This document shows positions 28,261 through 38,269 of a DNA stretch of 64,000 bases, piece by piece. The notes below the pieces were generated by a model. It was not told the DNA's origin. It worked only from the letters and a program-made list of their open reading frames with translations, and made no database searches. The first letter of the stretch is position 1, and each line of letters starts with the position of its first letter. Source of the stretch: Verrucomicrobiia bacterium (GTDB lineage Bacteria > Verrucomicrobiota > Verrucomicrobiia > Limisphaerales > UBA1319); assembly GCA_963664225.1 (NCBI GenBank), contig OY760937.1:4064001-4128000 (forward strand), in the 5' to 3' direction. A program made the translations under genes and the position numbers.

Positions 28261-30235
28261 GTGCGCCAGTGAAATTGGTAGCCTCGTGGGTGAAAGTCCC
28301 GCCGGTCGAATTAGACGGTTCACGACCGAAATGCAGCGTCCGGGACGAGGCCGTGAGGCCGAACCACAAGCGGGACGCTGAAAGAACTGTCGGGTCGTAA
28401 CGAAAGTAAACCTCATCAAATGAGCTCCGAAACCGAAATAACCGGTAAGCCGAGCCGCTACCCGAACGGCGAAGGCAGAAACGCGGCGTCATCAAATCGT
28501 CAAATGGGCGCTGTTGATTCCGGCGGAGTCAGCGAGGGCGACACGACAGGAAGGGAAACCAAGGTAAGCTGGGAGATCTCTGGAGGCGGGGCGATAAAGC
28601 CTCAACCGCCGGTGCAAGGAGGAACACCCTCCGAGGCCGCACGGGCAGCCAGAGAAGTCGGAGTCTTCCATAGTAGCGAAGAAGCTGGGGCGACCAAAAC
28701 CCCGGCGGAGCCAAGGGAAGGCACTTGGATCGAAGCGAATCAAAACAGCGAGGGACAGGGAGATGGCCTTGAGGGAGTGGAAACACTTTTTCAACGGATA
28801 ACAACCCCGATAAAAGTTCAAAAGCTGCAGCGAGCGCTATATTGCAAAGCCAAGGCTGAGCCGAAGTATCGGTTTTACAGCCTCTACGGAGAACTGCTGC
28901 GGAAGGACGTGCTGGAAACGGCAATGGCCTCCGTGGCGCACAACAATGGCGCGGCTGGGATCGACGGGCAGACATGCGACGTCTATCTTGCCAGCGACGA
29001 AGCCTGGGACCAATGGCGGAACCAACTGCTGGAGGAGTTACGCACGAAGAAGTATCGGCCAAGCCCGGTGAAGCGTGTGTATATACCAAAAGGAGACGGG
29101 AAGCTGCGACCCCTGGGCATCCCGACAGTGAAAGACCGGGTGGTGCAGACAGCGGTGGTGATTGTATTGCTGCCGATTCTGGAAGCCGATAGTCATCCGA
29201 ACAGTTACGCCTATCATCCCAAACGCAATGCCCACCAAGCAATGGAGGCGATCAAGAAGGCTACGCTGACAGGACGCGTCGAAGTTATAGACGCGGACTT
29301 AAGCGGGTATTTTGACAGCATTCCCCACAGGCGTTTGTTGCGCATAGTGGCCAAGCGGGTCAGCGATGGAACAATTCTCAAGCTGATCGCAGGATGGCTG
29401 CGCGCGCCCGTGAATGAACCGCAAAGCGACACAGGGAAAGGCGGGACAAAGGGGGGGCAAGGTCAGAATCGACGGGGGACTCCGCAAGGCGGGGTTGTAT
29501 CGCCGATTTTAGCCAATGCATACCTCAACCAGTTGGATTGGGAAGTCAACGAACGCTGCGAACTCAAACCCGTGATGGTGAGATACGCGGATGATTTCGT
29601 GATACTCGGACAGCCGGGGCAGGGACGGGAACTGATGGAACGACTGGAACGATGGCTGAAGCAACGCGAGTTAGTGCTCAACGAGAAGAAGACCCGCTTG
29701 GTGGACCTCCGCCAGGATGGCATCAAATTCTTGGGATTCGCGCTAACAATGCGACAGGGGAAGGGGAAATGGAAATATCCGCATGTGGAACCCCATCCCA
29801 AGAGCCAGAAGAAGTTTCGAGACGGGATTCGGGAGAAACTCAACCGAAGCACGCTATGGCGTGATATCGGAGAGGTGATTCCCGAGCTCAACAAGAAACT
29901 CAAAGGTTGGAAGGGTTACTTTCACTACGGGAACAGCACCAAGGTGATGGGCCAGATGAACGAATACGTCAGCAGCAAGTTACAACGATGGTTGTGGCGC
30001 AAACACGGATGTAGTCGGGCGCAATGGTCCACATACCCCAAGGAGGATCTCTATGAGCGTTATGGTTTATACCAAATGCCGGAATATGCGGCATGGAAAC
30101 GATGACGTCGAAGCGATGCAACGTATGATCCCCGGAGAGCCGGATGCGGGAAAACCGCCTGTCCGGTTCGATGAGGGGCGAAATGCGACGGTCATTGGCC
30201 ACGGCCATTCAATCCGTCCATTTCGCCTACTCTAC
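28261..30235 (+). mobile_element. Group II intron (complete ribozyme plus intron-encoded protein)
   Basis: 5' GTGCG; domain V GAGAGCCGGATGCGGGAAAACCGCCTGTCCGGTTC near 30135-30169; domain VI ending CCTACTCTAC; EBS1 ACCCGAA at 28460-28466 pairs with the 5' exon. Confidence 0.95.
28777..30105 (+). CDS. ltrA: Group II intron reverse transcriptase/maturase (RT-X, no endonuclease domain)
   Basis: GAAGIDG, RPLGIPTVKDR, DADLSGYFD, GTPQGGVVSP, RYADDF, GWKGYF; start codon inferred (GTG). Confidence 0.93.
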   Translation: METLFQRITTPIKVQKLQRALYCKAKAEPKYRFYSLYGELLRKDVLETAMASVAHNNGAAGIDGQTCDVYLASDEAWDQWRNQLLEELRTKKYRPSPVKRVYIPKGDGKLRPLGIPTVKDRVVQTAVVIVLLPILEADSHPNSYAYHPKRNAHQAMEAIKKATLTGRVEVIDADLSGYFDSIPHRRLLRIVAKRVSDGTILKLIAGWLRAPVNEPQSDTGKGGTKGGQGQNRRGTPQGGVVSPILANAYLNQLDWEVNERCELKPVMVRYADDFVILGQPGQGRELMERLERWLKQRELVLNEKKTRLVDLRQDGIKFLGFALTMRQGKGKWKYPHVEPHPKSQKKFRDGIREKLNRSTLWRDIGEVIPELNKKLKGWKGYFHYGNSTKVMGQMNEYVSSKLQRWLWRKHGCSRAQWSTYPKEDLYERYGLYQMPEYAAWKR

Positions 30236-30885: not shown

Positions 30886-30895
30886 TTTGAACGCT

Positions 30896-31501
30896 ATGAA
30901 CCCCTGCAATGAGGAGTCGCACTGCGCTGATCTGCAGCACAGAATGGATTCGAAAATGGATTCAAAATCCGGGCATGCCTTCACATTGATCGAACTGCTG
31001 GTGGTCATCAGCATCATTGGCATCCTGGCCGGGATGCTGTTGCCGGCATTGAGCGGGGCAAAACGGAGCGCGCATTCGACGGCCTGCATCAGCAACCTTC
31101 ACCAACTCGGCCTGGCACTTCATCTCTATGTGGAAGACAACCAAGGGCGTCTGCCTTTTTGCTCGATGCTGCCCAGCCAGTTTACCAACCTGGCGCCCAT
31201 CACCACCACGCTTTACCACTATGCGCCCGCAAAGACAGTGTTTAAGTGTCCGGCAGACAAGGTGTTTTTCGATGTCGAGAAGACCAGCTACGAATGGAAC
31301 TTTTTTCTCAATGGGGCGTCCTATGATCGTCCCGAAGAATGGTCCAAAATCACCAAAGCCCTCGTGGGAACGATTTTCGGTGCAAGACAAGACACGCCCT
31401 TGATGGGGGATGCGGGTCCGTGCCATATCGCCAAGGGAACCTTGAGCGGCAAGAATGCGCTGTACTTCGATGGGCGCGTTCAAAGGGCGAAAAACAATTA
31501 G
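30896..31501 (+). CDS. Prepilin-type N-terminal cleavage/methylation protein (PVC pseudopilin-like)
   Basis: [41 protein letters not shown]-terminal NALYFDG. Confidence 0.9.
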
Positions 31502-32920: not shown

Positions 32921-33988
32921 CTAGAAACGACGACGAAACCAGAATGCGACATGGACGAGACCGATCAGTGCCGGCACCTCGATCAATGGGCCCACGACGG
33001 CGGCGAAGGCGACGTCTGACTTGATTCCAAAGACGGCGATGGCCACGGCGATGGCGAGCTCGAAGTTGTTCCCCGCCGAGGTGAATGCGAGAGTGGCGGA
33101 GCGCGGATAATCGGCGCCCAGCCGCTTTGCCATCACGAAACTCACCAGAAACATGATCGCGAAATAGAGCACGAGCGGGATTGCGATGCGCAGGACGTCC
33201 AGCGGCAGCCGCACAATGGCGTCGCCCTTGAACATGAACATCACAACGATGGTGAAGAGGAGCGCGGTGAGCGTGAGGGGGGAGATGCGCGGGATGAATA
33301 CGCGCTCATACCATTCCTCCCCCTTGAGCGGCACGAGAATCACCCGGCTCAAAATCCCGGCGGTGAATGGGATGCCAAGGTAGATCATCACACTCCAAAA
33401 AATGTCACTCATGTGGACCGGCACCACGGCGCCCTTCAAGCCAAAGTAAGGCGGAAGCACGGTGATGAAGATCCATGCGTAGAAACTGTAGAACAGGATT
33501 TGGGCGATGCTGTTAAGGGCCACCAACCCGGCGGCATACTCGCTGCTTCCTTTGGCAAGTTGGTTCCACACCAGAACCATCGCGATGCAGCGGGCGATGC
33601 CCACGAGGATCAGCCCCACCATGTAGTCCGGGTGATCGCGCAGCAGCAACACCGCGAGCAGGAACATCAGCGCCGGTCCAACGATCCAATTCTGGACAAG
33701 GGATAGCGTGAGGATGCGCGCATCGGCGAAGACTTTTGGCAGTTGGGAGAATTTCACCTTCGCCAGCGGCGGATACATCATGAGGATCAGGCCGATGGCG
33801 ATGGGCAGGTTCGTTGTGCCCACGGTCATGGGGTCGAAGAACCCCTCGGGATCGGCGATCACGAAATGGCCCAGCAGCACGCCAATGCCCATGGCGGCGA
33901 AGATCCAAACCGTGAGATAGCGATCCAGAAAGGACAAGTTCCTGGCCACATCGACGGGATTGGCGGCAGTAATCGATTTATCCATCAC
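32921..33988 (-). CDS. acr3: ACR3-family arsenite efflux transporter
   Basis: [43 protein letters not shown]. Confidence 0.97.
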
Positions 33989-34012: not shown

Positions 34013-35191
34013 TCAGCAGCAGCGACTTTCGGGTTTGGCGTTTGTGGCTGGCCCGGGGCAGCAATCGCTCTCTGGCTTTGGTGCAAACTCTCCATGCAGG
34101 AAGCGGTCAGCCAGTTTGAGAATCGCCTGGGCCGGGGCCTGTTTGACAGAGTGCGCGGTATTCACCGCAGCCGTCATGTCCTCCACAGAAACGCCCAGTT
34201 TACGCGCCTTATCGTAGTGGTATTTGAAACACGGTTCGCAATTGGCGGAGATGGCCGCGCCGATGGCGATCAATTCCGTCACAGCAGGGGAATAGAGCGA
34301 CCCGTGATCAGCTTCCGAATCCTTGCAGGCGCACGCACAAGTGTGGGCTGGTTTGCGGGCTGTGACCTCGAGACTGGTGATGTATTCCGAGGGTTTGGAA
34401 CCGGCAGGCAAGTGCTGGATGATTTTCTGATACAGCGGATCCTTCCATTCGGACATGCCATCAATGTAAGCCGATTTCGGATTGAGCACGATGTCCGTCA
34501 ATCCGGCCTCGGTGGCCATGCGCTCCGTTTCTGAAACCAGCACCGCGCCCGCGACGCAACCGACCAGAGCCTCAACCATTTCGAGGACGGCGGGGGGCAT
34601 GGGTTTGAGCATGGCAAGATCGGAAACGGCAACGCGACCGCCGGGCTTGAGCACGCGCGCCATTTCGCGCCACACCTGCGGCTTGTCCGGCGAGAGGTTG
34701 ATGACGCAATTGGAAATGATCGCGTTCACACTGGCGTCGGCGATGGGCAGATGCTCGATTTCACCGAGACGAAACTCGACGTTGTCCAGGCCCGACCGTT
34801 CGCGATATGGAGCGATGTTTTTACGCGCCTTCGACAACATTTCCGGTGTCATGTCCACACCGATGGCGCGTCCATCCGCTCCCACTTTACGCCCGGCAAT
34901 GAAAACATCGAACCCGCCTCCCGAGCCCAAGTCCAGAACCACCTCGCCCGGTTGGAGCGCGGCGAGGGCATTGGGATTGCCGCAGGAAAGGCCCATGTTC
35001 GCACCCTCGGGCAGGGCGGCCAGTTCCTCGGTGCTGTAACCGACATACTGGGCCAACTGCGTCGAATCTTCAGCGCTCGAACCGCAGCAGCTCACGCCGG
35101 AACAGCAGGATTGGTTCTTTTCCGCAATCCTGCCGTAACCTTCGCGGACGGTTTGCCGGATGTTTTCGGGATCGACATTATTTGGTTTCAT
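34013..35191 (-). CDS. arsM: Arsenite S-adenosylmethionine methyltransferase fused to a C-terminal CMD/AhpD-like domain
   Basis: GLSCGNP, LDLGSGGGFD, ISNCVINL, GCVAGA; then ELIAIGAAISANCEPCFKYH..ARKLG. Confidence 0.92.
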   Translation of the reverse strand: MKPNNVDPENIRQTVREGYGRIAEKNQSCCSGVSCCGSSAEDSTQLAQYVGYSTEELAALPEGANMGLSCGNPNALAALQPGEVVLDLGSGGGFDVFIAGRKVGADGRAIGVDMTPEMLSKARKNIAPYRERSGLDNVEFRLGEIEHLPIADASVNAIISNCVINLSPDKPQVWREMARVLKPGGRVAVSDLAMLKPMPPAVLEMVEALVGCVAGAVLVSETERMATEAGLTDIVLNPKSAYIDGMSEWKDPLYQKIIQHLPAGSKPSEYITSLEVTARKPAHTCACACKDSEADHGSLYSPAVTELIAIGAAISANCEPCFKYHYDKARKLGVSVEDMTAAVNTAHSVKQAPAQAILKLADRFLHGEFAPKPESDCCPGPATNAKPESRCC

Positions 35192-35196
35192 TTTTC

Positions 35197-35988
35197 TTAA
35201 GGATGTACTTTGACATCAGGGAAATGACAGCCGGTGCAGGATTTGGTCGAGACATCGGCTAATACACCATCTTTACCATGGCAGGACAAACAACCGGTGG
35301 TCTTATCGCCCAGATTCACTGGTTTGGTCGCTGTTCCGGCAAAGCTGGCGTTTAGCAACTCGACGGTCTTATGGGCCATGTCCGCCGACAAACGGCGGCA
35401 CCGTTCTTTGCGCTCGTCGCTGTAAGCGGTTACCTTGGCCTGCTTGACCCAGACACTGACGGATGGATGGCATAAAACGGAACCGGGTTTGACCGCAGGA
35501 AGGTTCATTTTGGACGCCGGGTTCCTGGGGGCATATTGAGGCAGTTTTGTGTCCTGATAATAGGAAAACAACGCATCGATGAGCGCATTGCGCTCGGTTC
35601 CATTGCGCACCAGGAGCGATATCGCCGCGGCTCCGCCATTGAGCGTTCCGCACAAAGTGCCCCATTCGGCGACGCCTCCTTTGCCATAATACATCATTTC
35701 ACAGGGAAATGACTTGTAAGGCTCTCCCACCTTCTCCGCCAGTTGTGTGACAATACTGGCAAAAACGCCATACATGCATCCGGTTGCCGCAGTATGCATC
35801 TGATAGGAGAGCTCGGACGTCTGATCCGCATCCAACGTGACATAACGCCATGGTTGCGATGTGTTTTGCGTGGTTCCTTTTTCCGGCGGATTCTTCTCGG
35901 CCCCCAGCGCACCCAGCGCATAAGAACCCGAGGCCATGACCAGCGTTTGCAGCAAATGTCTTCGATTCAGTGTTTTCATTATTTCCAT
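35197..35988 (-). CDS. Tat-exported C_GCAxxG_C_C domain diheme protein (split-Soret cytochrome c-like)
   Basis: NRRHLL Tat-like motif; GCMYGVF, WGTLCGTLNG, SVLCH, KERC; two C-terminal CxxCH (CLSCH, CTGCH). Confidence 0.85.
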   Translation of the reverse strand: MEIMKTLNRRHLLQTLVMASGSYALGALGAEKNPPEKGTTQNTSQPWRYVTLDADQTSELSYQMHTAATGCMYGVFASIVTQLAEKVGEPYKSFPCEMMYYGKGGVAEWGTLCGTLNGGAAAISLLVRNGTERNALIDALFSYYQDTKLPQYAPRNPASKMNLPAVKPGSVLCHPSVSVWVKQAKVTAYSDERKERCRRLSADMAHKTVELLNASFAGTATKPVNLGDKTTGCLSCHGKDGVLADVSTKSCTGCHFPDVKVHP

Positions 35989-36039
35989 TATTCCGACAAG
36001 TTAATTTGTTCTGGTTTGTTAGTATCGTCCCGGCACTCG

Positions 36040-36501
36040 TCAACTTTTCACCTGATCCGAGGCAACGAGTTCCTCAACGTTCTCCACCACGGTTTGAACA
36101 CAGCCGACACAAATATTGTGAAGCAGGTCCCGCTCTTTGAAACGCGCCTGTCCTTCCGCGGTTCTCAAATCACACCCATGGAGCAGGTCGTGACACAGGC
36201 AGGAACCATGCCGCTTCTCAAACCGTGACATTAGTTCGAGCGTTTTCTGGTAGGTTTGATCGGTTGCCGAGCGGTCCTGGCGGGCACCGCGGCCGTATTT
36301 GAGGCCCAGCACCATGACACCGCCCGAGACGGCGCCGCAGACTTCGCCGTGACGGCCAATGCCCGCGCCAAAACCGGTGGAGACCTTCAGCGCAATCTCC
36401 GGATCCAAGCCCAGTTCCGGGGCAAAGGCGAAGAGGACCGACTGGGCGCAATTGTAACCGGATAGGAACTTTTCTGAGGCAATTTCGCTTTTCGTTTTCA
36501 T
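36040..36501 (-). CDS. C_GCAxxG_C_C family putative redox protein
   Basis: GYNCAQSV, GFGAGIG..VCGAVSG, GSCLC, ICVGCV. Confidence 0.92.
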   Translation of the reverse strand: MKTKSEIASEKFLSGYNCAQSVLFAFAPELGLDPEIALKVSTGFGAGIGRHGEVCGAVSGGVMVLGLKYGRGARQDRSATDQTYQKTLELMSRFEKRHGSCLCHDLLHGCDLRTAEGQARFKERDLLHNICVGCVQTVVENVEELVASDQVKS

Positions 36502-36513
36502 GATTTTAGCACC

Positions 36514-36969
36514 TTATTTTGTGCCAATATTTGACGCCTGCAACAAGGCCATGGAGCCGGGCAGCGTTTCGACGAATTTACGAATCTCATCCCGCACCCG
36601 CCGATACACGGCCAACTTTTCCTCGCCGTCCGGCATGTTCTTCGTGAGCTTCGGCGGGTCCTCAAATCCGACATGCACCACCTTTGCCTTGCCGGGGAAA
36701 ATGGGGCAATTCTCGTTGGCATGGCCACAGACGGTGACCACGTAATCGAACACGACGCCAATTTCCTGGGGTGTCTTGGAATAGTGTTTCGAGATGTCCA
36801 CGCCCGCCTCGGCCATGACTTTTACGGCGTGTGGATTCATTCCGTGTTTTTCGATTCCCGCAGAATAGGGATCCATGACATCGCTTTTGAGGTGGCGCGC
36901 CCAGCCTTCGGCCATCTGGCTGCGACAGGAATTGCCGGTGCAGAGAAAAAGGACTTTCAGCTTCGACAT
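36514..36969 (-). CDS. arsC: Arsenate reductase, thioredoxin-type (LMW-PTP fold)
   Basis: CTGNSCRSQMAEG P-loop; VC..ANENCP; FEDP..RVRDEI. Confidence 0.95.
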   Translation of the reverse strand: MSKLKVLFLCTGNSCRSQMAEGWARHLKSDVMDPYSAGIEKHGMNPHAVKVMAEAGVDISKHYSKTPQEIGVVFDYVVTVCGHANENCPIFPGKAKVVHVGFEDPPKLTKNMPDGEEKLAVYRRVRDEIRKFVETLPGSMALLQASNIGTK

Positions 36970-37322
36970 TGGCGTTTGCATATTTCAACGGGATCCAGTT
37001 TGAGAATCTTGCGCAGGTTGGCGGTGTCCTCGGTAATGCGCGGATCGTCGGTGAGCGATTTTTCGACCCATTTGAGCGCCTCCCGGGCGGCGGTGGATGC
37101 ATTTTTTCCGGGAAGGGCATAGTAAATCCAGCGGCCTTCCTTGCGTGAATCTACCAATCCAGCCTGCCTCAAGAGGTAGAAATGCTTCGACATGGTGGAC
37201 TGGGCCAGGCCGAAAAGCTCGGTGATCTGACAGGCGCAGAGCTCCTGCTGACGCAACGCCAGAAGAACGCGGATGCGGGTGGCATCGCCGAGGGCCTTTG
37301 TGATGTTCATGAAATCGCGCAT
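36957..37322 (-). CDS. arsR: ArsR/SmtB transcriptional repressor
   Basis: KALGDATRIR, ELCACQI, STMSKH, RKEGRWIYY; C-terminal CKRQC. Confidence 0.95.
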   Translation of the reverse strand: MRDFMNITKALGDATRIRVLLALRQQELCACQITELFGLAQSTMSKHFYLLRQAGLVDSRKEGRWIYYALPGKNASTAAREALKWVEKSLTDDPRITEDTANLRKILKLDPVEICKRQCRS

Positions 37323-37334
37323 GATGATTCTACG

Positions 37335-37386
37335 TCATTTCGCCATAAAACGAAATGAAGATGCCTTTAATGTGGGTGGCTGTCAA
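37335..37386 (-). promoter_or_regulatory. ars promoter with ArsR operator
   Basis: Palindrome TCATTTCG-N8-CGAAATGA (37335-37358), just downstream of minus-strand TTGACA-N17-CATCTT. Confidence 0.75.
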
Positions 37387-37482: not shown

Positions 37483-37920
37483 TCACTTTTTCACCAGGGG
37501 ATTGCGCACCTTAAGTTGCGGAAATGCAGAGAAGTCGCGATCCGCCGACCAGAGTTCGCTTATGCCGTGATGGAGACAGAGTGCGGCGATGCGCGCATCG
37601 TGGATGCGGGGGCCTTTGAGTCTCGCGGCGGTCGCGACGGCGCGCAGTTTCTCGAAATAACCGGGACCTTCGGCAAGGAACTCCGCGTTGGCACCCGCCC
37701 GCCAGGCGTCCACGGCTGCCAATGCCGCGCTGAGCGTCGTGGCCGGTCGGTATATGTTTGGGTGGGTGACGATGCTGATGAATTCATGCACGCAAGGCCA
37801 GGGAATGGCCCACGGCGCGGATTGATGCCGCAAGCGGTCAATCAACTCCTTCGCGGTAACATGGAACTCGCTGTCTCCGCGGTGCGAATAGACCAGCAGA
37901 TTGGTGTCCACGGCGATCAT
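37483..37920 (-). CDS. vapC: VapC-family PIN toxin
   Basis: IAVDTNLLVY, HEF, HDARIAA, SADRDF acidic residues. Confidence 0.93.
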   Translation of the reverse strand: MIAVDTNLLVYSHRGDSEFHVTAKELIDRLRHQSAPWAIPWPCVHEFISIVTHPNIYRPATTLSAALAAVDAWRAGANAEFLAEGPGYFEKLRAVATAARLKGPRIHDARIAALCLHHGISELWSADRDFSAFPQLKVRNPLVKK

Positions 37921-38162
37921 GCGCCATGGCCCCTGTAAATTTCGTTGCGAATTCTGTCCCAGGAGGCGTTTTTGAACTCCTCTGTCAGGCCGCTGCCGCG
38001 CACCGTGACCAAAGGCGGGAGTTTCCGGGGACGATCCTGCTTTTCCTGCAGAACCAGTCGCAGGCCTTGTTCCGTCAGGGAACGAAAAGTCGTCTTCTTC
38101 CTTCGGGCCAGGAGTTGGGCGCGTTCGAAAAGGTCGTCGGCGATTTCAATAGTTGTCTTCAT
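37917..38162 (-). CDS. vapB: VapB-like ribbon-helix-helix antitoxin
   Basis: MKTTIEIADDLFERA..TFRSLTEQGLR; ATGA overlap with the PIN gene. Confidence 0.88.
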   Translation of the reverse strand: MKTTIEIADDLFERAQLLARRKKTTFRSLTEQGLRLVLQEKQDRPRKLPPLVTVRGSGLTEEFKNASWDRIRNEIYRGHGA

Positions 38163-38164
38163 TG

Positions 38165-38204
38165 TATGGTAAGCCATATTCACATATATGGGCACCCATA
38201 TCAA
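38165..38204 (-). promoter_or_regulatory. TA autoregulatory operators overlapping the promoter
   Basis: Two palindromes of consensus TATGG-N4-CCATA (38165-38178, 38187-38200) next to minus-strand TTGATA. Confidence 0.7.
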
Positions 38205-38269
38205 GTGGCATTTCAGAGAGACGCGCCGATTTCTCTCCAAGCCTTCGGTGCGTGCCGGTCACACGCAAA

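Follow-up and report, generated by a model that had tools for sequence, protein, structure and literature searches.

We analysed a 64,000-nucleotide (nt) stretch of the genome of a Verrucomicrobiia bacterium (contig OY760937.1, positions 4,064,001 to 4,128,000; hereafter the window, in whose numbering coordinates are given) and found an arsenic resistance (ars) operon that carries two genes of the C_GCAxxG_C_C family between arsC and arsM. Six minus-strand open reading frames (ORFs) lie head to tail in the order arsR, arsC, CGCA, SSC, arsM and acr3. CGCA is our shorthand for a cytoplasmic C_GCAxxG_C_C protein of 153 amino acids (36040..36501; PF09719 and TIGR01909), and SSC for a split-Soret-type dihaem cytochrome of 263 amino acids with a twin-arginine translocation (Tat) signal (35197..35988; NF047622, PF09719 and the structure 1h21). 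The first gene, arsR (36957..37322), encodes an ArsR/SmtB metalloregulator (PF01022 (HTH_5), E 6.8e-14; NF033788, 89.6 bits, cut-off 55) whose translation contains an ELCAC (CxC) motif; we liken this motif to that of R773 ArsR and presume on that ground that the protein senses As(III). The product of arsC (36514..36981) is an arsenate reductase of the low-molecular-weight protein tyrosine phosphatase type, the thioredoxin-coupled class (PF01451 (LMWPc), E 6e-20). Its best NCBIfam match was the thioredoxin-type arsC model TIGR02691 at 147.9 bits, under the cut-off of 174.3, and C14, C19, C85 and C92 were invariant in 27 aligned homologues. The arsM gene (34013..35191; NF008823, 328.1 bits, cut-off 263) encodes the only ArsM in the genome that scored over the cut-off. 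It has the conserved cysteines C35/C36, C70, C162 and C212, as judged from 20 homologues, and a C-terminal fusion to a CxxC-bearing AhpD/CMD domain (PF02627 (CMD), residues 301-356) that is followed by a Cys-rich tail (…DCCPG…SRCC) at the very end of the protein. The last gene, acr3 (32921..33988; TIGR00832, 432.6 bits, cut-off 282.8), encodes an arsenite efflux permease.

The arsR gene overlaps the start of arsC, and the remaining intergenic gaps are, in order, 12, 51, 5 and 24 nt. Both CGCA and SSC lie on the strand of the ars genes, tightly spaced, behind an ArsR-type regulator and an operator-like site, and the gaps of 5 and 51 nt suggest that SSC is co-translated with arsM. The operator-like site is a perfect inverted repeat, TCATTTCG-N8-CGAAATGA (8-N8-8), on the minus strand at 37335..37358, 13 nt upstream of arsR. 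We found the core of this palindrome, ATTTCG-N8-CGAAAT, 7-33 nt upstream of arsR in ten related loci (L001-L003, L093, L102-L104, L106, L111 and L118; loci elsewhere are numbered with an L throughout), and it is a predicted ArsR binding site. Terminator-like sites showed no excess (6 seen against a mean of 5.8 in shuffles). A first-pass annotation of this DNA had placed both genes inside an ArsR-headed operon, and the tight spacing, the arsR/arsC overlap and the conserved upstream palindrome bear this out. A contig of about 93% identity in one metatranscriptome library, from a relative, spanned the SSC/arsM junction (35123-35511), which is a weak hint of expression and not proof of transcription. 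The CGCA/SSC junction was bridged by none of the contigs listed from four sequencing runs, which were stored as contigs, and the sole run recorded as RNA contained 7% of the sampled words.

CGCA matched PF09719 (C_GCAxxG_C_C) with E 4e-34 (117.7 bits, cut-off 27), the only family reported in its Pfam scan, and also passed TIGR01909 (89 bits, cut-off 47.4); no signal peptide was found. The NCBIfam DVU_1555 model NF045669 gave 50.3 bits for CGCA, below its cut-off of 103, and 18.1 bits for SSC, so that neither protein is assigned to that family. Neither matched an ArsD model at E <=0.01 in Pfam or NCBIfam, and the same tools detected ArsD in locus L002. We found more than 1100 homologues of CGCA at E <1e-10, the best 120 of which were all 65-97% identical to it. 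Seven cysteines (C18, C55, C101, C103, C110, C131 and C134) were invariant in 27 aligned homologues. A census was then made of 94 near-full-length homologues, 48 linked to ars genes and 46 others. It revealed that C18, C55 (in VCGAVSG), C103 and C131, the four cysteines of the family, were present in all 94, while the three extra cysteines differed between the groups: C101 occurred in 45 of 48 ars-linked proteins and 29 of 46 others, C110 in 44 and 31, and C134 in 46 and 34, respectively. Two of the three extra cysteines lie within 1-2 residues of universal ones (C101-x-C103 and C131-x-x-C134). Prediction of a complex of CGCA with ArsC and ArsM(1-290) returned a score of 0.00, which is evidence neither way. 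The plasmid collection yielded seven CGCA matches, all below 60% identity (best 46.2%), and the ESM Atlas search with CGCA returned generic PF09719 clusters only.

SSC passed PF09719 (42.4 bits, cut-off 27) and failed TIGR01909 (20.8 bits, cut-off 47.4). It matched the split-Soret model NF047622 over its full length (2-261 of 275) at 197.9 bits, under the equivalog cut-off of 400, and is therefore a homologue, not an equivalog, of split-Soret cytochrome c. Residues 46-256 aligned by sequence with PDB 1h21 (E 9e-38), the sole relative whose structure has been solved. Both CxxCH motifs (C233/C236/H237 and C251/C254/H255) were invariant in 31 aligned homologues and present in 75 of 76 sequences; C71, C113, C173, H174, C197 and H262 were likewise invariant in the 31. 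Four of these residues, C71, C113, C173 and C197, align with cysteines in the N-terminal domain of 1h21, which we take, from the title of the entry and its paper, to be ligands of the iron centre. The N-terminus carries a twin-arginine motif, NRRHLL, with R9 and R10 conserved in at least 90% of the same homologues, and translation likely starts at the second ATG (MKTLNRR...), as in the homologues. The structural model (mean predicted local distance difference test score (pLDDT) 75.7) has the 1h21 fold, matching 1h21_A in Foldseek with E 3.7e-11, template modelling scores of 0.70/0.76 and 35% identity over 227 columns. Two CcsA-type cytochrome c assembly genes were found in the genome of the window.

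The AlphaFold2 model of CGCA (mean pLDDT 85.8) is all-helical. When this model was submitted to an exhaustive VIA-align search, 1h21_A was the top match (Z 12.3, 137 of 153 residues, root mean square deviation 4.0; next Z 6.4), and the alignment took in chain residues 27-194, which belong to the non-haem part at the N-terminus of 1h21. On this model, CGCA is predicted to have the fold of the split-Soret N-terminal iron-centre domain. Foldseek against PDB returned nothing for CGCA at E <=0.001, and hhalign of the CGCA and SSC alignments joined only 31 columns around the GCAxxG motif with a probability of 28%, so the kinship of the two proteins rests on Pfam family and shared fold. Because both models match 1h21, one fold is common to the two proteins, extended in SSC by a Tat signal and a dihaem tail. 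The gene identities and minus-strand positions of the first-pass annotation agreed with Pfam, NCBIfam and 1h21, and the opposite topologies that it had predicted were also recovered, CGCA having no signal peptide and SSC a twin-arginine N-terminus.

We then examined the surroundings of CGCA elsewhere, taking the best 80 of at least 568 metagenome relatives and searching them by tblastn with the ars proteins of the window. Across the 80 loci ArsC was detected in 35, ArsM in 33, ArsR in 27, Acr3 in 16 and SSC in none. Where CGCA was at least 63% identical, an ars gene lay within 1.5 kb in 37 of 41 loci; arsC or arsR was found in 29 of the 33 informative upstream flanks, and arsM or acr3 in 25 of the 30 informative downstream flanks. 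The commonest order was arsC|CGCA|arsM (21 of 41), with arsC|CGCA|acr3 in four, and the usual fuller order was arsR-arsC-CGCA-arsM-acr3. Linkage was kept in rearranged loci (L091, arsR-CGCA-acr3-arsC; L117, arsM-CGCA-acr3). Linkage was also seen among more distant relatives: one locus with a 53%-identical CGCA carried ArsM at 324 bits (L171), another had the order acr3-AhpD-CGCA (L173), and in L138 and L148 an ArsM-like methyltransferase (235-238 bits, just below the cut-off) lay directly upstream of CGCA. Homologues without ars neighbours occurred in varied contexts, several with other S-adenosylmethionine (SAM) methyltransferases. PF09719-type homologues were found in 63 of 401 sampled Verrucomicrobia genomes (E <=1e-20), and close ones were rare. 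These results define CGCA as a distinct, well-conserved cytoplasmic C_GCAxxG_C_C subfamily that normally occupies the arsC-arsM interval, and make it a strong candidate for an ars gene that is both new and widespread.

The same genome also contains a third PF09719 paralogue, a weak match (L083; G000:C1:1374597-1377866), flanked by an MrpORP-type Fe-S cluster carrier (503.7 bits, cut-off 450) and a class I SAM methyltransferase. It is another C_GCAxxG_C_C protein paired with a methyltransferase. The CxxC domain of the AhpD/CMD type was mobile among these ars clusters: it forms the ArsM C-terminus in the window, L003, L106 and L118, is fused to ArsD in L002 (L002:4482-5135), and is apparently free-standing between acr3 and CGCA in L173 (L173:1154-1348).

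The surroundings of SSC were examined in the same way. The 31-homologue alignment served to scan one genome per species, and the best 80 of 319 relatives were searched by tblastn with the six proteins of the window. The nearest four, L001-L004, are from Verrucomicrobia (59-70% identity) and without exception had the order arsR-arsC-SSC-arsM, followed by acr3 in L002-L004; L001 ends before that point. A second set of loci came from Bacteroidota. In Mariniphaga sediminis (L048) the order was arsR-arsE-arsF-arsG-permease-SSC-arsC-arsM-acr3, and in L011 acr3 and arsC lay beside SSC. An ArsP_1-family permease gene was directly upstream of SSC in L011, L036, L048 and L066 and two genes upstream in L035, a Thioredoxin_3 gene was directly upstream in L035 and L053, and ArsR-type regulators adjoined SSC in L038 and L039. 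NCBIfam identified the Bacteroidota module as ArsE/ArsF/ArsG-type genes, with ArsG over its cut-off in L011, L066 and L035. ArsEFG was reportedly described by Chen, Zhang and Rosen in 2019 for the detoxification of roxarsone and nitarsone. Neighbour clustering, for which an SSC ORF was called in 75 of the 80 loci (L021, L033, L060, L061 and L070 were dropped), revealed no universal partner; the most widely shared family was ArsC, in seven loci.

NCBIfam gives the name ArsG aromatic aminobenzylarsenical efflux permease to the products of L048:4783-5484, L011:4832-5545, L066:5118-5816 and L035:232-933. Pfam classes the same products as membrane proteins of the DsbD_2/CcdA type ('cytochrome c biogenesis'), and they also match DsbD weakly. 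Together with the thioredoxin-like ArsE, ArsG looks like a transmembrane conduit for thiol electrons, which may bear on the role of the adjacent SSC.

A maximum-likelihood tree, built from 76 SSC proteins by a quick search and supported by the Shimodaira-Hasegawa-like approximate likelihood ratio test only, placed the window SSC with L001-L004 in one clade (100% support) and L011, L035, L053, L048 and L066 in an ArsEFG-linked Bacteroidota clade (97% support). Planctomycetota clades without ars neighbours separated the two, and SSC therefore entered arsenic clusters at least twice. The cysteine C96 of SSC was present in 5/5 Verrucomicrobia, 0/5 of the Bacteroidota ars clade and 10/66 others. 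The SSC family overall is not arsenic-specific; SSC is the rarer, twice-recruited addition to arsenic gene clusters, and the linkage of CGCA to ars genes is stronger and wider. The first-pass annotation had suggested checking both genes for co-occurrence with ars genes in other genomes, and the outcome was positive for CGCA and, through its four closest loci and the Bacteroidota clade, for SSC. That annotation was right to count CGCA in the operon, and the rank behind SSC that it gave to CGCA has to be reversed, since the CGCA linkage is the stronger and wider one.

Two other contexts of SSC were observed. In spirochaete loci (L059, L063 and L072; metagenome-assembled genomes (MAGs) labelled Treponema/Leptospira), which form a clade with 100% support, ResB and CcsA-type genes lie directly after SSC in what looks like a self-contained cytochrome-plus-maturation cassette. 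In MAGs labelled Bathyarchaeota (L057 and L069), SSC homologues lie beside runs of Mrp/NADH-dehydrogenase antiporter-like genes (Proton_antipo_M) and an AsnC/Lrp regulator.

Taken by themselves, the two proteins did not behave as a pair, which is how the first-pass annotation had presented them. No SSC was found in any of the 80 CGCA loci and no CGCA gene in L001-L004. As the two were never together in these 84 other informative loci, they are not an obligate pair, and since each occupies the arsC|X|arsM slot, they look like alternative modules sharing a fold. The window is unusual in carrying both. Three pairs of homologues (P0122/P0002, P0123/P0001 and P0134/P0004), matched on longest contig (39560, 83476 and 3776, respectively), suggest that CGCA and SSC pairs exist elsewhere. 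The new result is that in other organisms CGCA and SSC are each linked to ars genes, one without the other.

Several smaller features of the window lie outside the operon. Directly upstream of it, two small overlapping ORFs (145 and 107 amino acids; 37483-38240, minus strand) resemble, by eye, a PIN-domain toxin and its antitoxin. On the plus strand are a 561-amino-acid reverse-transcriptase/maturase-like ORF (28420-30105) and an ORF whose N-terminus carries a methylation motif of the prepilin type (30887-31501); such prepilin-type ORFs are abundant in Verrucomicrobia and Planctomycetes, in keeping with the phylum of the nearest SSC loci.

SSC resembles Ssc of Desulfovibrio desulfuricans ATCC 27774 (1h21) in fold, in the four cysteines of the N-terminal domain, in both CxxCH motifs and in the conserved histidines. 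It differs in its verrucomicrobial host, which is not a sulfate reducer, and in its place inside an ars operon, whereas CGCA differs from Ssc in having no haem tail and no signal peptide. The family to which both belong by PF09719 is annotated in PF09719/TIGR01909 only as 'putative redox-active protein'. NCBIfam also names a DVU_1555 family of C-GCAxxG-C-C proteins and a DVU_1556 family of methyltransferases, which CGCA and ArsM of the window match weakly; DVU_1555 and DVU_1556 are presumably adjacent genes, as their names imply. Among the loci examined here, genes of the C_GCAxxG_C_C family repeatedly lie next to one for an ArsM-like SAM methyltransferase. CGCA is a separate subfamily that is distinguished from DVU_1555 by three additional conserved cysteines and by its residence in ars operons. 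Enzymes of the ferredoxin:thioredoxin reductase type have CxC motifs and an Fe-S cluster beside a redox-active disulfide. The C101-x-C103 and C131-x-x-C134 arrangement of CGCA resembles theirs, an analogy that serves as a lead only; no relation in sequence or fold was detected by Pfam, NCBIfam, Foldseek or VIA-align.

In the parts of the literature available to us, authors describe split-Soret cytochrome as an electron carrier of the periplasm without an assigned role (PMC5701242, PMC4215793, PMC8359318), and C_GCAxxG_C_C appears only as a family that contains selenoproteins, without an assigned function (PMC9312934, PMC13188914). Accessory ars genes have been catalogued, among them the ArsD chaperone, ArsH, ArsO, ArsE/F/G and ArsP (PMC9144182); PF09719 proteins and split-Soret cytochromes are absent from this catalogue of named ars genes, as far as the accessible portion goes. 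CGCA and SSC are like the named accessory genes in being extras within ArsR-controlled operons, where they would broaden or support detoxification, and Pfam and NCBIfam revealed no sequence similarity of either to the named accessory Ars proteins. Our literature search, judged partly by titles and the beginnings of abstracts, found no link of split-Soret cytochrome or C_GCAxxG_C_C to arsenic, nor 'putative redox-active protein' together with arsM.

We lean modestly towards the view that this is one ArsR-controlled operon of which CGCA and SSC are genuine accessory ars members, a cytoplasmic redox partner and its periplasmic counterpart. Both are probably unrecognised parts of arsenic detoxification, and the finding is best described as a version of the ars operon with two uncharacterised accessory redox genes. 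Their neighbours on either side are an arsenate reductase that works through a thiol cascade and a methyltransferase that depends on thiols and has its own AhpD-type CxxC domain. CGCA would carry an iron centre on its four universal cysteines, as the title of 1h21 implies for the homologous domain, and the neighbouring extra cysteines would perform thiol-disulfide chemistry, re-reducing ArsC and ArsM; alternatively, these extra cysteines might bind As(III) and hand it over to ArsC/ArsM. SSC, exported by Tat, would be the counterpart in the periplasm: a small electron-transfer protein that acts on expelled arsenicals or protects against them. Because SSC adjoins ArsM, ArsP_1-family and ArsE/F/G genes, organoarsenicals are indicated over inorganic arsenite. 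The haems of Desulfovibrio split-Soret cytochrome have low potentials, a property more in line with reduction than with oxidation of As(III), and the large subunit of arsenite oxidase (AioA) had no match in the genome better than 18.9 bits (cut-off 359). For these two reasons, oxidation of As(III) by SSC is disfavoured. The idea of SSC as a partner of arsenite oxidase was rejected, as the genome has no AioA, and the periplasmic arsenic or methylarsenic oxidation proposed in the first-pass annotation gained no backing from a genome of this kind and an SSC free of any ars signature. Cofactor content, substrates and the direction of electron flow are predicted in all of the above.

Several observations weigh against CGCA and SSC as accessory ars genes. 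Below 63% identity, only 8 of 39 CGCA loci had an ars gene nearby, and many of the metagenome contigs were only 1-2 kb long. At least two of ArsC, ArsM and Acr3 were found in the fetched flanks of just 6 of the best 80 SSC loci, and the Pfam families of the neighbours at ±1 (147 proteins) and ±2 (140 proteins) were mostly unrelated, for example glycosidases and regulators. SSC has essentially two independent ars associations; the loci are related to one another and some metagenome contigs may be duplicates, so the counts make the cases look more independent than they are. Within the phylum, SSC was found in 3 of 401 sampled genomes, that of the window included, and because of this rarity its presence could reflect transfer of a block. 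Ars-operon SSC proteins contained no arsenic-specific cysteine or motif when compared with members outside ars operons. In Desulfovibrio alaskensis G20, split-Soret mutants had no phenotype under 12 energetic conditions, arsenic not being among those described in the portion of the source at hand (PMC4215793).

Most of the points on SSC would equally be expected if it, and possibly CGCA, were a general electron carrier or passenger, brought in by transfer of the ars block or induced to replace periplasmic redox proteins sensitive to arsenite. The sporadic distribution, the want of a sequence signature, the unrelated contexts of most family members and the G20 mutants all favour this idea. The spirochaete SSC, moreover, travels with ResB/CcsA, and some of the redox proteins next to SSC, the DsbD-like ArsG for example, may have a role in its biogenesis only. 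We nevertheless regard it as unlikely. SSC keeps its operon position in five organisms at protein identities of 59-70%, another clade, separate in the tree, sits in a different ars/organoarsenical context, the short gaps around SSC suggest co-translation with arsM, and the linkage of CGCA in 37 of 41 loci is far too consistent for a passenger.

A rather improbable alternative, about as doubtful as the last, concerns CGCA, which might be an ArsD-like As(III) metallochaperone or buffer, not an electron carrier, that delivers from a three-sulfur site formed by C101, C110 and C134 to ArsM or Acr3. ArsR, ArsD and ArsM each bind As(III) through three thiolates, which counts in its favour. These cysteines are near-invariant in ars-linked CGCA (44-46 of 48), the CGCA-type operons seen here lack arsD and arsA, and L002, which has SSC and no CGCA, carries an ArsD-AhpD fusion instead. 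Set against this, roughly two thirds of the homologues outside ars contexts (29-34 of 46) have the extra cysteines as well, the fold of CGCA is that of an iron-centre domain, and CGCA has no sequence similarity to ArsD, Pfam reporting PF09719 only.

It seems less plausible that the C_GCAxxG_C_C domain is itself catalytic, with SSC oxidising methylarsenite (MAs(III)) or As(III), or reducing pentavalent methylarsenicals or trimethylarsine oxide, and CGCA doing likewise in the cytoplasm, a generalised form of what the first-pass annotation had proposed. One fold occupies one operon slot in both compartments, in association with genes for organoarsenicals (ArsM, the ArsP_1-family permease and ArsE/F/G), and the selenocysteine forms of the family, as far as the accessible text describes them (PMC9312934, PMC13188914), suggest a cysteine that is reactive and not purely structural. 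SSC, however, has no arsenic-specific pattern of residues, and most members of the family occur in settings unconnected with arsenic. Oxidation of As(III) is further disfavoured by the low potentials of the haems in Desulfovibrio Ssc. Equally hard to credit is the most far-reaching proposal, that the C_GCAxxG_C_C fold is a hitherto unrecognised, arsenic-dedicated redox module whose cytoplasmic and Tat-exported dihaem forms catalyse a missing organoarsenical step on both sides of the membrane; it might, for instance, reduce pentavalent methylarsenicals, or recycle the disulfides of ArsM and ArsC by Fe-S chemistry without thioredoxin, and, if true, would explain how communities of the peat and wetland type sustain arsenic methylation through their anaerobes and microaerophiles.

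Methylation by ArsM governs the toxicity and mobility of arsenic in soils, rice paddies and wetlands, and further accessory ars genes continue to be described. In dozens of uncultured organisms the place between arsC and arsM is taken by an orphan subfamily, and in others by a structurally related periplasmic cytochrome. To our knowledge, the split-Soret cytochrome has been without an assigned function since the 1990s. If CGCA and SSC proved dispensable, even tightly conserved operon membership could mislead. As accessory members of ars operons, the two orphan families gain a concrete hypothesis, and the finding points to an unrecognised redox requirement in arsenic detoxification.

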